A DNA stretch of 64,000 nt from an uncultured Oscillospiraceae bacterium (GTDB lineage Bacteria > Bacillota > Clostridia > Oscillospirales > Ruminococcaceae). Below, in pieces: positions 13,208-64,000 of this stretch; within the stretch, counting starts at the first letter, position 1, and each line of letters opens with the position of its first letter. A model generated the notes under the pieces. The model ran no database searches, had not been told where the DNA came from, and saw only the letters and a program-made list of their open reading frames with translations. The position numbers and the translations under genes are program-made. The stretch covers positions 2,464 to 66,463 of the forward strand of contig CAYJEQ010000005.1 of assembly GCA_964369235.1 (NCBI GenBank), written 5' to 3'.

Positions 13208-14005
13208 TTATAGGATATATGGCTGTGTGGAAGAATTAAGTGCTTCTTCTGGAGCCATTGCGTGTAATGCCATTTTACCTACATCTCTAGCAGCGATAAT
13301 AGCCTGTTTAACAGCACCGGAATCACCAGAGAATGTTATAATAACCTCATTGGAGTAGCTTGTTCCACCATTACCTGGGGAGCTGTAGCCTACTACATCA
13401 ACTGTTGCAGCCTTAACAGCTGTATCAGCAAGTAGTACACCGATAGCAGCAGGAGCACCTACAGTAATACCAAAGGATTTACCAATTGGAGCACCGAATG
13501 CTTTGTTTAGAGCGTAGCTTGCTCTAGCTGTGTACTGGAACTCAAGGTGACCAGCGGAGTTTCCGTATACATCACCAAATGTTCTGTCTAGCTCTCTTAG
13601 GCAAACTTCAACAGCTCTTCTTGCATCGGATACATCCTCAGCACCAAAGATGATTAAGCTACCATGACCAGCGCCACCCTGTGTATCACGAGGTAGTTCG
13701 ATTTTAACGATTTCGCAGTTTGTAGCTTTAATAGCTTCGTCAGCTGCAAAGATATGTGGGCCAGCACCTGTTCTAGCGCCGATGATACCGATGGAACGGT
13801 ATTTAGGATCGATTTCCATTTTTTCGTGGATCTGATTGTCTACATTAGCGATAACTAGACCGATTGTAGAACCAATAGCAGTACCTACGAATTCAGTAAG
13901 ACTTGTTGCAGGAGCGATATTTGCAGATTTTGTTGTTTCTGGAGCAGCAGTTCCTAGTTTCTTTAGAACTTCGTCCATAACCTTGTTTAGCATTTCTTCT
14001 TTCAT
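13208..14005 (-). CDS. pduB: Tandem-BMC-domain trimeric shell protein PduB
   Basis: 265 aa with two permuted BMC domains. The N-terminal helix is EEMLNKVMDEVLKKL, and it lies between pduA and pduC. Confidence 0.85.
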   Translation of the reverse strand: MKEEMLNKVMDEVLKKLGTAAPETTKSANIAPATSLTEFVGTAIGSTIGLVIANVDNQIHEKMEIDPKYRSIGIIGARTGAGPHIFAADEAIKATNCEIVKIELPRDTQGGAGHGSLIIFGAEDVSDARRAVEVCLRELDRTFGDVYGNSAGHLEFQYTARASYALNKAFGAPIGKSFGITVGAPAAIGVLLADTAVKAATVDVVGYSSPGNGGTSYSNEVIITFSGDSGAVKQAIIAARDVGKMALHAMAPEEALNSSTQPYIL

Positions 14006-14043
14006 TTGAGTTTACCTCCGTGTTTAATTTAATTAAATTTTAC

Positions 14044-14322
14044 TTATAGTGTTTTAGGTAATATTTTTTCCACATCTGTATGTGGTCTTGGGATTACATG
14101 TGTAGATACTACACAACCCACCTTAGCTGCTGCTACTGCTCCTGCTTCTGTAGATGCTTTTACAGCACCAACATCACCACGAACCATTACAGTCACTAGA
14201 CCTGAACCTATTTTCTCGTAGCCTACCAATGTTACATTGGCAGATTTAACCATTGCATCAGCAGCCTCAATAGCGCCAACTAAACCTTTGGTTTCAACCA
14301 TTCCTAATGCTTCTCTCTGCAT
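14044..14322 (-). CDS. pduA: BMC-H hexameric shell protein PduA; first gene of the operon
   Basis: 92 aa ([24 protein letters not shown]...[15 protein letters not shown]) with an AAAGGAGG RBS. By eye it is a close paralogue of the 7291-7566 product. Confidence 0.9.
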
Positions 14323-14599
14323 AATTAACCTCCTTTCGCCCTTTTATAGCCAAGTCATATACCAATTAAATATATGGCCTGTTTCCATTATATAACATTT
14401 TAGTGCAACTTTCTTGCTCAGTGTAGAGATTTTTTTTACATCAATTTGAATATTTTTCACTGAAATGTTCACAGAAAAACTATTGACAATAACCAAGTGG
14501 TTTTTTTTTACATATAGGTGTATTTAGTCGATGCTCTAACAATTTTCCATTGTAAATATTATGAAATTTACCTATATATTTAATACAATGTAAAAAAGT

Positions 14600-14690
14600 T
14601 GTATAGCAAATCTTAGGGGACAGTCCCTCTCCATCAGCGAGGGACTGTCCCCTAAGATAATTTCACCCTAACAATTAATATAGTGCCTAC
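14600..14690 (+). repeat. Copy A of the dispersed palindromic intergenic element
   Basis: Sequence: tatagcaaatCTTAGGGGACAGTCCCTC-tccatcagc-GAGGGACTGTCCCCTAAGataatttcaccctaacaattaatatagtgcc. It has an 18-bp perfect stem and shares flanks with five other copies. Confidence 0.85.
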
Positions 14691-14732
14691 AAAAAAGAGA
14701 ACAAAAATTATGTAAAATAATTTTTGTTCTCT
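14690..14732 (-). terminator. Intrinsic terminator after gldA
   Basis: A 15-bp stem (agagaacaaaaatta / taatttttgttctct) is followed on the minus strand by TTTTTTG. It lies 39 nt after the gldA stop. Confidence 0.7.
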
Positions 14733-14770
14733 TTATATTGTAAATCTTTACTATTAAATATTATAAAAAA

Positions 14771-19093: not shown

Positions 19094-19176
19094 GGCTCTA
19101 TATTAATTGTTGGGGTAAAATTCAGTTGGGGTACCGTCCATCGGCGAGGGACGGTACCCCAACATTTGATATTGAA
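19094..19176 (-). repeat. Copy B of the palindromic intergenic element (inverted orientation)
   Basis: Sequence: ggctctatattaattgttggggtaaaattcaGTTGGGGTACCGTCC-atcggcgag-GGACGGTACCCCAACatttgatattgaac. Confidence 0.85.
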
Positions 19177-19220
19177 CCTTCCTTTTTTTATCGCCTACTC
19201 CTACTATTGACAAAGAGCCG

Positions 19221-29862: not shown

Positions 29863-29898
29863 AATAGTCAAATTTCTTATATAGCCTTATAACAAAAC

Positions 29899-29963
29899 GG
29901 TTCTATAGCAAATGTTGGGGTAGTACCCCAATAGAATTTTATCCCAACAATTAATATAGAGCC
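29899..29963 (+). repeat. Copy C of the palindromic element, with the hairpin core deleted
   Basis: Sequence: ggttctatagcaaatgTTGGGGTA-g-TACCCCAAtagaattttatcccaacaattaatatagagcc. Both flanks are conserved, but the CCCTCGC...GCGAGGG core is missing. Confidence 0.8.
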
Positions 29964-29973
29964 AACAAAACTA

Positions 29974-30009
29974 ATGGTCTGACACTTTATAGCTGTCAGA
30001 CCATTTTTT
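29974..30009 (+). terminator. Intrinsic terminator after ptsI
   Basis: atggtctgaca-ctttatagc-tgtcagaccat, followed by TTTTTT. Confidence 0.8.
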
Positions 30010-30099: not shown

Positions 30100-30188
30100 T
30101 GTTCATCATTAAATATTGGGGTAAAATTATATGGGGCATATTCCCTCGCCATGAGCGAGGGAATATGCCCCATAATTGATATAGAACT
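30100..30188 (-). repeat. Copy D of the palindromic element (inverted orientation)
   Basis: Sequence: ...attaaatattggggtaaaattaTATGGGGCATATTCCCTCGC-catga-GCGAGGGAATATGCCCCATAattgatatagaac. It has a 20-bp perfect stem and ends 18 nt from the leuS stop. Confidence 0.85.
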
Positions 30189-57899: not shown

Positions 57900-58014
57900 T
57901 TTAAACCTAATAATTATTTTAAACTATACAGGGTGTACTCTGTGGATTTGCAAGGATTTATATTATTTATCTTCTATCCACAGAGTTTGCCCTATAAATT
58001 TGAGGTGAATTATC

Positions 58015-63506: not shown

Positions 63507-63842
63507 ATGTTAGCTTTATCTAGTTTTTTTGATATCCCTGTAGTTAATCCAGAAACCTATGAGTTTAATCATCTAGTGTACTATCTGATGATTGGTACTG
63601 TAATAATCTCTATTATACTTTTTATTATAATGGTAACCATTATCTTTAAATCAAAGAGTAGGGCTAATCTACAAAGTTCTTTATTTGTAGTATCCATAGC
63701 TATAGTGATAAAAATTCTCTATAATCTAACCCTATCTAATACAGCCATCTATGGTATGTTAGAGGATATATTTAGAATAGGCTTCTTATCTTTTGTATTT
63801 CTTATTTTCTATCTACATACACTTAAAAAAAGTAAAAGATAA
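63507..63842 (+). CDS. Hypothetical three-TM membrane protein
   Basis: 111 aa with a strong AAGGAGGGG RBS 6 nt upstream, its own promoter, and hydrophobic segments. No recognisable family. Confidence 0.6.
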   Translation: MLALSSFFDIPVVNPETYEFNHLVYYLMIGTVIISIILFIIMVTIIFKSKSRANLQSSLFVVSIAIVIKILYNLTLSNTAIYGMLEDIFRIGFLSFVFLIFYLHTLKKSKR

Positions 63843-63844
63843 TA

Positions 63845-63920
63845 TTCTGTTGGGGTGTATTCTCTCGCTGTTGCCGAGGGAATACACCCTATAAAAATAC
63901 CAAAACAATTAATATAACTC
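63845..63920 (+). repeat. Copy E of the palindromic element
   Basis: Sequence: ttctgttGGGGTGTATTCTCTCG-ctgttgc-CGAGGGAATACACCCtataaaaataccaaaacaattaatataactc. There is one U-G position in the stem. Confidence 0.8.
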
Positions 63921-63947
63921 TTTATCTATAATAAAGACAAAAATAAG

Positions 63948-64000
63948 GTTCTATTGCAAATATTGGGGTACCGTTCCTCGCCAAGGGCGAGGAACGGTAC
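63948..64000 (+). repeat. Copy F of the palindromic element, truncated by the window end
   Basis: Sequence: ggttctattgcaaatattGGGGTACCGTTCCTCGCC-aag-GGCGAGGAACGGTAC... Confidence 0.8.

Follow-up and report, generated by a model that had tools for sequence, protein, structure and literature searches.

The DNA analyzed in the present study is a 64,000-nt chromosomal fragment of an anaerobic Firmicute, with a GC content of approximately 39% (contig CAYJEQ010000005.1; the whole fragment is hereafter called the window). Among its genes are leuS, ptsI, [FeFe] hydrogenase, pdu-type microcompartment genes, smc, and ylqF. Between genes lie six copies, designated A to F, of a short repeat, and a GC-rich hairpin occupies a fixed position in every one of them. 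A preliminary description of the window had treated these hairpins as free-standing; they instead sit at the center of a larger repeat, bounded by terminal inverted repeats, which that description overlooked. We propose, with considerable confidence, that the repeat is a non-autonomous MITE (miniature inverted-repeat transposable element) that was cut down from an insertion sequence (IS) of the ISL3 family. The whole account, which adds to this identity a combined explanation for the covariation of the hairpin arms, is put forward with moderate confidence.

Copies of the repeat

Motif searches and an nhmmer profile of the window identified exactly six copies, all of which are intergenic. From six per 64 kb, a total on the order of a hundred or more would be expected in the whole genome. 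The elements are 65-93 nt in length and are overlapped only by chance open reading frames (ORFs) of 54 aa or less. In the family orientation, they read GGTTCTATAGCAAATGTTGGGG, a variable stem arm, CCCTCG, a loop, CGAGGG, the opposite stem arm, CCCCAAC, tgAATTTTA, and CCCCAACAATTAATATAGAGCC. The terminal inverted repeats are 22 nt long and imperfect (GGTTCTATAGCAAATGTTGGGG versus reverse complement GGCTCTATATTAATTGTTGGGG, 18/22). Their left/right asymmetry is constant: one end is of the type TAGCAAATG and the other of the type TATTAATTG, and we refer to them as IRR-type and IRL-type after the right (IRR) and left (IRL) inverted repeats of the IS described below. Both ends were recognized in A, B, C, and D, with partial ends in E and one end in F. 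Among A to D, the copies in which it could be assessed, an AT-rich target duplication of 8 bp is perfect in C only, is matched at 6 of 8 positions in A and D, and is absent in B.

Copy D (30100-30188, minus strand) has two decayed ends, and 7 of the 22 positions of its IRL-type end are changed. Its hairpin (30130-30174) consists of the arms TATGGGGCATATTCCCTCGC and GCGAGGGAATATGCCCCATA, which form 20 of 20 possible pairs around a 5-nt loop (TCATG on the minus strand), as the 20-bp stem of the preliminary description implied. The flanking 8-mers are ATTATTAA and ATTACTTA (identity 6/8). One end of the element is 18 nt downstream of the leuS stop codon, and the element runs in the leuS sense. 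Copy C (29899-29963, plus strand) is a short variant with consensus ends. Its hairpin (29915-29931) is reduced to TTGGGGTA-g-TACCCCAA, which corresponds to an F-type hairpin minus a 26-nt palindromic core. The perfect 8-bp duplication of this copy, AACAAAAC, is at 29891-29898 and 29964-29971. Copy C is located between the ptsI stop codon and the native ptsI terminator (29973-30005), a 12-bp hairpin with a T-run that may work both ways and serve leuS as well.

Copy A (14597-14687, plus strand) comprises the IRR-type end AGTTGTATAGCAAATCTTAGGGG, a hairpin (14610-14658) with 20/20 bp and a 9-nt loop (TCCATCAGC), a spacer, and the IRL-type end ACCCTAACAATTAATATAGTGCC. Its flanking 8-mers, TGTAAAAA (14589-14596) and TACAAAAA (14688-14695), are identical at 6/8 positions. 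The region at 14694-14734 is the native intrinsic terminator of gldA on the minus strand, a perfect 18-bp AT-rich hairpin followed by a T-run, and this T-run forms the target duplication of copy A. Copies of the MITE were inserted right beside native terminators at both gldA and ptsI. Copy B (19094-19178, minus strand) has the IRL-type end GGCTCTATATTAATTGTTGGGG at 19094-19115 and the IRR-type end at 19157-19178; it has no recognizable target duplication and sits downstream of the terminator of a hydrogenase gene. Its hairpin (19125-19163) is a 39-nt near-palindrome with 18 of 19 pairs, a perfect run of 15 bp, and a single C/A mismatch three pairs from the center. The 12 bp first assigned to this stem falls short of that length.

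The remaining two copies are on the plus strand near the end of the window. Copy E (63836-63921) is the most decayed; its IRR-type end is nearly unrecognizable, its IRL-type end is CCAAAACAATTAATATAACTCT, and it begins 8 nt past the stop codon of a 111-aa ORF (63507-63842). The hairpin of this copy (63852-63888) has 14 of 15 pairs with one T.G, which had been noted earlier as a U-G position, and a further G.T at the base that had been overlooked. Copy F (63947-64000) is cut by the window end. It retains the IRR-type end GGTTCTATTGCAAATATTGGGG and a hairpin (63968-64000) with 15/15 bp, at least 15 given the truncation, and the loop AAG. The tip of this hairpin, TCCTCG/CGAGGA, differs from that of B by a paired change.

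The hairpins are not explained by chance, as judged by shuffling and folding statistics. The window contains six perfect hairpins of 12 bp or longer, whereas 30 dinucleotide-preserving shuffles gave 0-1 each, and four of the five hairpins in the window of at least 14 bp belong to the repeat family. The RNA folding z-scores of the elements ranged between -5.3 and -8.6, and none of 200 shuffles folded equally well. Re-reading of A, B, D, E, and F placed the hairpins at the positions first reported, with arm sequences essentially as quoted.

Relationship to ISL3 insertion sequences

A scan of 185,579 species genomes with a 17-mer of one end (CCYAACAATTAATATAG) returned 67 loci, which were chance or coding matches with the exception of IS ends in Ureibacillus. 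In Ureibacillus endophyticus, the 17-mer recurs at the tips of a multicopy element (GGTTCTATATTAATTGTTGGGGTTT...), the ORF of which has the domains Zn_ribbon_ISL3, HTH_Tnp_ISL3, and DDE_Tnp_ISL3. Homologues of this transposase form a large clade in Bacillales together with one Eubacterium metagenome-assembled genome (MAG). We sampled this parent IS clade as seven lineages. The ISL3 clade of Ureibacillus, Lysinibacillus, Sporosarcina, Rossellomorea, and the Eubacterium MAG (P0122, P0224, P0178, P0211, and P0254) is among the known systems closest to the present repeat.

Complete copies in this clade are 1370-1545 bp long, with the IRL GGTTCTAT(A/T)AT.TTTGTTGGGG and the IRR CCCCAACATTTGAC...GAACC. 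Perfect 8-bp AT-rich duplications flank three of these copies (TTTTTTCT, ACAAATAA, and AATAAAAA), and duplications of the same kind have been reported for an ISL3-family transposon (PMC9782665). The MITE resembles this clade in several respects. Its TATTAATTG end is of the IRL type and is identical to the U. endophyticus IRL at 21 of 22 positions. Its AGCAAATG end is of the IRR type; when CCCCAACATTTGCTATAGAACC is compared with CCCCAACATTTGACACAGAGCC of the Eubacterium MAG, 17 of 22 positions are identical, including all of the inner 12 nt (CCCCAACATTTG). An AT-rich target duplication of 8 bp, perfect in copy C of the MITE, and a stem-loop abutting the IRR are further points of agreement.

A stem-loop also occurs in the IS. 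Four of the seven lineages have one between the stop codon of the transposase and the IRR, with a 3' arm that runs into the CCCC of the IRR. The stems of these four lineages are mutually unrelated (GGTGAATGAAATTG, 14 bp; GGGTGGAG, 8 bp; GGGTGaCGT; and GGaGTGG). Two further lineages have perfect hairpins of 19 bp and 12 bp located 45-60 nt inside the IRR. Long, perfect, GC-rich hairpins of this kind, after the transposase gene and 45-60 nt inside the IRR, are those at positions 2711-2760 of locus L076 (CCTGCCATCCAATTCTTCC...GGAAGAATTGGATGGCAGG) and approximately 2370-2395 of locus L078 (palindromic, CCATGGGAGGGTACCCTCCCATGG). Hairpins after the transposase gene thus seem common in the ISL3 clade, but at varying positions.

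Read in the transposase sense, the MITE has the IRL GGCTCTATATTAATTGTTGGGG, approximately 9 nt (TAAAATTCA), a stem-loop that reaches into the IRR by its 3' arm, and the IRR CCCCAACATTTGCTATAGAACC. Since the two ends match the IRL and IRR, and the stem-loop occupies the corresponding position, the element, as judged from its sequence, is composed of an IRL, 9 nt, an IRR-proximal stem-loop, and an IRR. The alignment showed that the junction between the IRL and the stem (TAAAATTnn) is common to all six copies. This shared junction indicates that the six copies go back to one deletion event and that the stem variants arose within the MITE family. The MITE differs from the ISL3 IS in that it has no transposase and is 65-93 nt long rather than 1370-1545 bp. 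Its stem is longer (15-20 versus 7-14 bp) and more GC-rich, and it pairs with 7 nt of the IRR (GTTGGGG/CCCCAAC).

The searches for further copies of the family gave none in the genome contigs, metagenomes, viral contigs, plasmids, and phages covered. A metagenome scan with a 23-mer returned three chance matches within one coding sequence, four pattern scans of viral contigs returned nothing or chance matches, and plasmids and phages contained no significant blastn match to the element. The family profile (nhmmer) did not match any of the retrieved loci. The LeuS proteins closest to that of the window are encoded on metagenome contigs (L068 and L069; 83% identity), and these loci have neither a copy of the element nor a similar hairpin; the identity with named relatives (Merdimmobilis, Phocea, and Oscillospiraceae MAGs) was 76-79%. 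Regarding the transposase, tblastn against plasmids gave only four distant matches, and the search of viral contigs found one relative with 40% identity.

The draft genome of U. endophyticus DSM 100506 has at least nine contigs with the IRL tip of the same ISL3 element (L007-L009, L012, L026, L031, L053, L060, and L063). Six of them break approximately 100 nt inside the element, which indicates that this IS is highly multicopy and fragments the assembly. In two Logan contigs (L080 and L084), the sequence past the IS stem-loop departs from the IRR. L084 runs into AGATCGGAAGAGCGTCGTGTAGGG, which is an Illumina adapter; this is an assembly artefact in a public contig and not biology.

Variation and maintenance of the stems

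The conclusions on covariation are drawn from five and a half stems. MAFFT did not align the hairpins in register, and the pairs were tabulated by hand in 19 ungapped columns. The table contains at least 11 extra Watson-Crick pair types, six of which are within a 6-nt block between GGGG and CCCTCG, and this variable block has no unpaired cell. The statement in the preliminary description that the variable parts of the two arms change in concert was upheld. The stems do not fall into two or three clonal types: all of those in the five full copies are different, and even B and F, which are otherwise of the same type, differ by a paired change from C:G to T:A.

The paired changes are diverse. Between A and B, G:C is replaced by C:G, G:C by A:T, T:A by G:C, and C:G by A:T, and for the transversion pairs G:C to C:G and C:G to A:T no wobble intermediate is possible. 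D and E share a clustered paired change from CCG to TAT, with CGG to ATA on the opposite arm. At the stem base, D has TAT/ATA, whereas E keeps the ancestral GTT on the IRR side opposite ATA; it looks as if the other arm had served as the template for a new IRR side. Changes at three neighboring spacer bases of A extend its stem into the IRR to 20 bp. An interpretation of A as carrying paired indels relative to B was rejected because three paired substitutions in the ungapped register suffice. The change in C is the loss of exactly the palindromic core.

The table has six unpaired cells. A has a single one beside the loop, B has a single one three pairs away from the center, and the other four belong to E, with two of them at the base of the stem and one each in GGGG and the tip. 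The E mismatches in the GGGG and CCCTCG blocks are both G.T. Unpaired substitutions are therefore present in A, B, and E. The GGGG base and the CCCTCG tip are broadly conserved, as first described, with exceptions in four copies: the base of A is AGGG in the ungapped register, the tip of F is the paired TCCTCG/CGAGGA, and unpaired exceptions occur in the tips of E (CTCTCG), B (CGATGG), and A (CCCTCT). Parsimony counts of paired to unpaired changes were 7:0 in the mid-stem and 2:4 in the GGGG and tip blocks (Fisher p ~0.02, from a small sample).

The stems have outlasted the ends of the elements. Outside the stem, differences from the family consensus amounted to 5/44 in A, 2/44 in B, 1/44 in C, 10/44 in D, and approximately 20/44 in E. 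The end changes of D and E are not shared and are, thus, copy-specific. Nevertheless, D retains 20 of 20 pairs, and no more than 3 of 18 are broken in E. At equal per-site decay, stems as well kept as those observed would have a probability of 8e-3 in A, 3e-5 in D, and 4e-6 in E, values whose significance is inflated if part of this flank decay is a subfamily difference or rearrangement. The combination of decayed ends and intact stems in D and E leads us to reject neutral drift, which, as had been argued from the hairpins, would break the pairing of a dead repeat. It also rejects the explanation that the copies are simply young.

Other features of the window

At 13208-14322 and 19316-21073/25656-26999 are PduB and BMC-domain shell genes, beside glycerol dehydrogenase, and two [FeFe]-hydrogenase-type genes, on opposite strands. 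Between approximately 24 and 30 kb, gene orientation and GC skew are both reversed as a block. An imperfect inverted repeat at 57910-58013 (38 nt, 71% complementary, 28-nt spacer, core CAGGGTGTACTCTGTGGAT/ATCCACAGAGTTTGCCCT) takes up the space that separates a semialdehyde-dehydrogenase-like gene from a gene for a MatE transporter. It does not belong to the MITE family and has no Rfam match.

Discussion

The repeat shows the features by which MITEs are recognized: a small size, no coding capacity, terminal repeats, multiple dispersed copies, and ends that match an autonomous IS. As an element it is ordinary, a new family within a known class, and its core hairpin is structurally maintained. 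We envision that a cognate ISL3 DDE transposase acting in trans would insert the MITE into AT-rich intergenic DNA and duplicate 8 bp in the process.

We tentatively favor a combined explanation for the behavior of the stems, in which structural constraint and arm-to-arm templated repair act together. The stem-loop may be a constrained structural module, probably a 3'-end or terminator-like hairpin that serves the IS and, following insertion, some host genes. The paired and often multi-base changes would arise mainly when one arm templates the repair of the other, through replication template switching in a quasi-palindrome. A single such event could rewrite one arm from the other, and selection would then purge variants that weaken the stem. 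According to the Ripley model of template-switch mutation in quasi-palindromes, one arm of an inverted repeat is copied from the other, and a single event may extend a stem, render it perfect, and introduce compensatory changes at several bases (Monttinen and Loytynoja 2022, PMC8794818). The stem changes between copies of the MITE resemble this pattern. Template switching is a mutational process and not an element family, and its operation here is suggested by six sequences compared directly rather than through a reconstructed phylogeny.

The preliminary description had offered two causes for the concerted changes, selection for a fold and a copying process that regenerates one arm from the other, and both remain live. 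Regarding the latter, template switching is the known process that fits. Snap-back synthesis, which had also been suggested, is unlikely to act at each transposition because the ends are asymmetric throughout and a single internal junction is present. As for why the arms stay complementary while they diverge, we infer that both selection and templated correction are at work, in proportions that six copies cannot apportion.

Several observations weigh against the account as a whole. It is based on only six copies, one of which is truncated, so that event counts are small and the Fisher p values are approximately 0.02-0.03. No ISL3 transposase or remnant is present in the window, and the true parent was not found. 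Neither an empty site nor a second genome was found, and the MITE is, therefore, putatively mobile. B lacks a target duplication, and one IS lineage, L092, is without a stem-loop close to its IRR. The present data do not separate selection from templated correction, both of which predict mismatches near the loop. The terminator-like role is weakened by the failure of A and B in terminator scoring, by the antisense orientation of A relative to its neighbors, and by the co-orientation of five of the six copies with the upstream gene reaching only p = 0.11.

The alternative that fares best is selection alone, in which the MITE carries a functional RNA hairpin, such as an intrinsic terminator or a stabilizer of the 3' end of the upstream mRNA, and independent compensatory mutations keep its arms in step. 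We consider this possible, but on the whole unlikely. The terminator scan was passed by C and D in the sense direction. D stands 18 nt past the leuS stop codon with a stem of 20 bp followed by TAATTTTA, and C is terminator-like after ptsI; these two cases compare with an expectation of 0.3. The start of E 8 nt after an ORF stop codon and the general co-orientation of the copies point in the same direction, and the mismatches of E in GGGG and CCCTCG, both G.T, would be wobble pairs in RNA of that strand. Measured against the decay of each copy, the best-kept stems are those of D and E, neither of which has another terminator directly beside it, and the pneumococcal SPRITE is a precedent for a terminator-like mobile repeat (PMC3049150). 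However, A and B are not terminator-like and lie beside native terminators, yet they have perfect runs of 20 and 15 bp. A is antisense to its neighbors, and the tail of E is A-rich and not U-rich. Furthermore, some of the paired changes, being transversions or clusters of adjacent bases, lack a viable route through wobble pairs, and stems of 20 bp far exceed the needs of a terminator.

Mutational drive alone, in which long quasi-palindromes correct themselves by template switching or hairpin-directed repair and need no function, appears improbable to us. The mechanism has been described (PMC8794818) and would account for the clustered multi-base paired changes, as well as for the growth of the stem into non-homologous flanks in A and D. 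E and D resemble the states before and after such an event at the stem base. The unpaired changes of A and B are found in the loop-proximal block, the part in which a fold-back primer has to be paired beforehand, and the precise deletion of the palindromic core in C points to hairpin activity at the DNA level. However, D and E have kept GGGG and CCCTCG(C) almost unaltered, whereas 23-45% of their end positions are changed (P ~0.03 for D and 0.008 for E). Without selection, these conserved blocks should drift as pairs, especially towards AT in a genome with 39% GC. The position of the stem-loop is also conserved in the majority of the distantly related IS lineages examined, which suggests a function.

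We regard it as very unlikely that the stems represent clonal subfamilies, with each stem type derived from a perfect-palindrome master and the copies young and undecayed. The TACCGT type is common to B, C, and F, TAT at X3-X5 is common to D and E, and C appears to be young from its consensus ends and perfect duplication. However, the stems of D, E, and A are intact despite decayed ends and duplications, and no stem recurs among the full copies, with B and F set apart by a paired change. Moreover, paired differences among masters would remain unexplained after the single ancestral deletion that the shared junction indicates.

Another type of structured repeat, such as a REP/REPIN mobilized by a RAYT, an integron attC site, a subterminal hairpin of the IS200/IS605 type, or a palindromic protein operator, is scarcely tenable: the MITE does share with REPs and REPINs GC-rich extragenic palindromes in many copies whose structure is kept while the sequence varies, and GTTGGGG...CCCCAAC superficially resembles the attC core sites GTTRRRY and RYYYAAC, but terminal inverted repeats of 22 nt and a duplication of 8 bp are foreign to these systems. 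REPs lack long terminal inverted repeats and target duplications, have a conserved GTAG, and are moved by a Y1 (HUH) transposase that acts on single-stranded DNA. The present elements have no GTAG motif, and no RAYT-like gene was noticed in the window, the ORFs of which were not scanned systematically for one. In comparison with attC, the order of the core-like motifs is reversed, the stems are perfect, and the neighbors are housekeeping genes rather than cassettes. A duplex operator would have fixed spacing, whereas the loops vary between 1 and 9 nt. We thus rejected REP/REPIN, attC, the IS200/IS605 hairpin, and the duplex operator on terminal repeats, duplication, motif order, the missing GTAG, and loop variation. 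No Rfam 15 family matched the window at gathering or permissive thresholds; sub-threshold hits to miRNA precursor models reached 31 bits against a gathering score of 90.

A parallel is found in pneumococci. SPRITE, RUP, and BOX are short, non-coding, intergenic, MITE-like repeats with a predicted long stem, and they are enriched near gene 3' ends and between convergent genes (Croucher et al. 2011, PMC3049150). In SPRITE, a U-rich tract comes after a duplex of 18 bp (PMC3049150). Similarly, the present MITE is small, structured, and intergenic in a Firmicute, and copies C, D, and E are found just past gene 3' ends. However, SPRITE is AT-rich, its terminal repeats are only AAAA/TTTT, and it has no established duplication and no IS with similar ends. 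The ends of the MITE are clearly those of ISL3, its stems are GC-rich, it has an 8-bp duplication, and it shares no sequence similarity with the pneumococcal repeats.

We speculate, with little confidence, that the IRR-overlapping stem-loop is a conserved cis-acting device of the ISL3 clade that might, for example, hide the IRR within a hairpin of single-stranded or transcribed nucleic acid and thereby gate transposition or outward transcription. Its MITE form might then be a palindrome that perpetuates itself by template switching, outlives the transposon ends, and is recruited as a portable terminator, as possibly occurred at leuS.

The present study gives the covarying hairpin a concrete origin as part of a transposon and not as an unknown RNA gene. 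It describes a MITE family in an uncultured Oscillospiraceae-like lineage, of the gut or of anaerobes, and the ends of this family are tied to a specific ISL3 clade. It also provides a clear case of a stem that remains paired during the decay of its surroundings in the copy. Each copy has an internal clock in its decaying ends and target duplication, against which the maintenance of its stem may be measured. The family would, therefore, be a compact natural test bed for distinguishing compensatory changes that arise by selection on independent mutations from those that arise by one-step template switching. Such elements break assemblies, may be mistaken for terminators or small RNA genes during annotation, and can affect the 3' ends of transcripts nearby. 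Interest in this family would increase if a genome-wide set of copies revealed one-step conversions from arm to arm or a role as mobile terminators.

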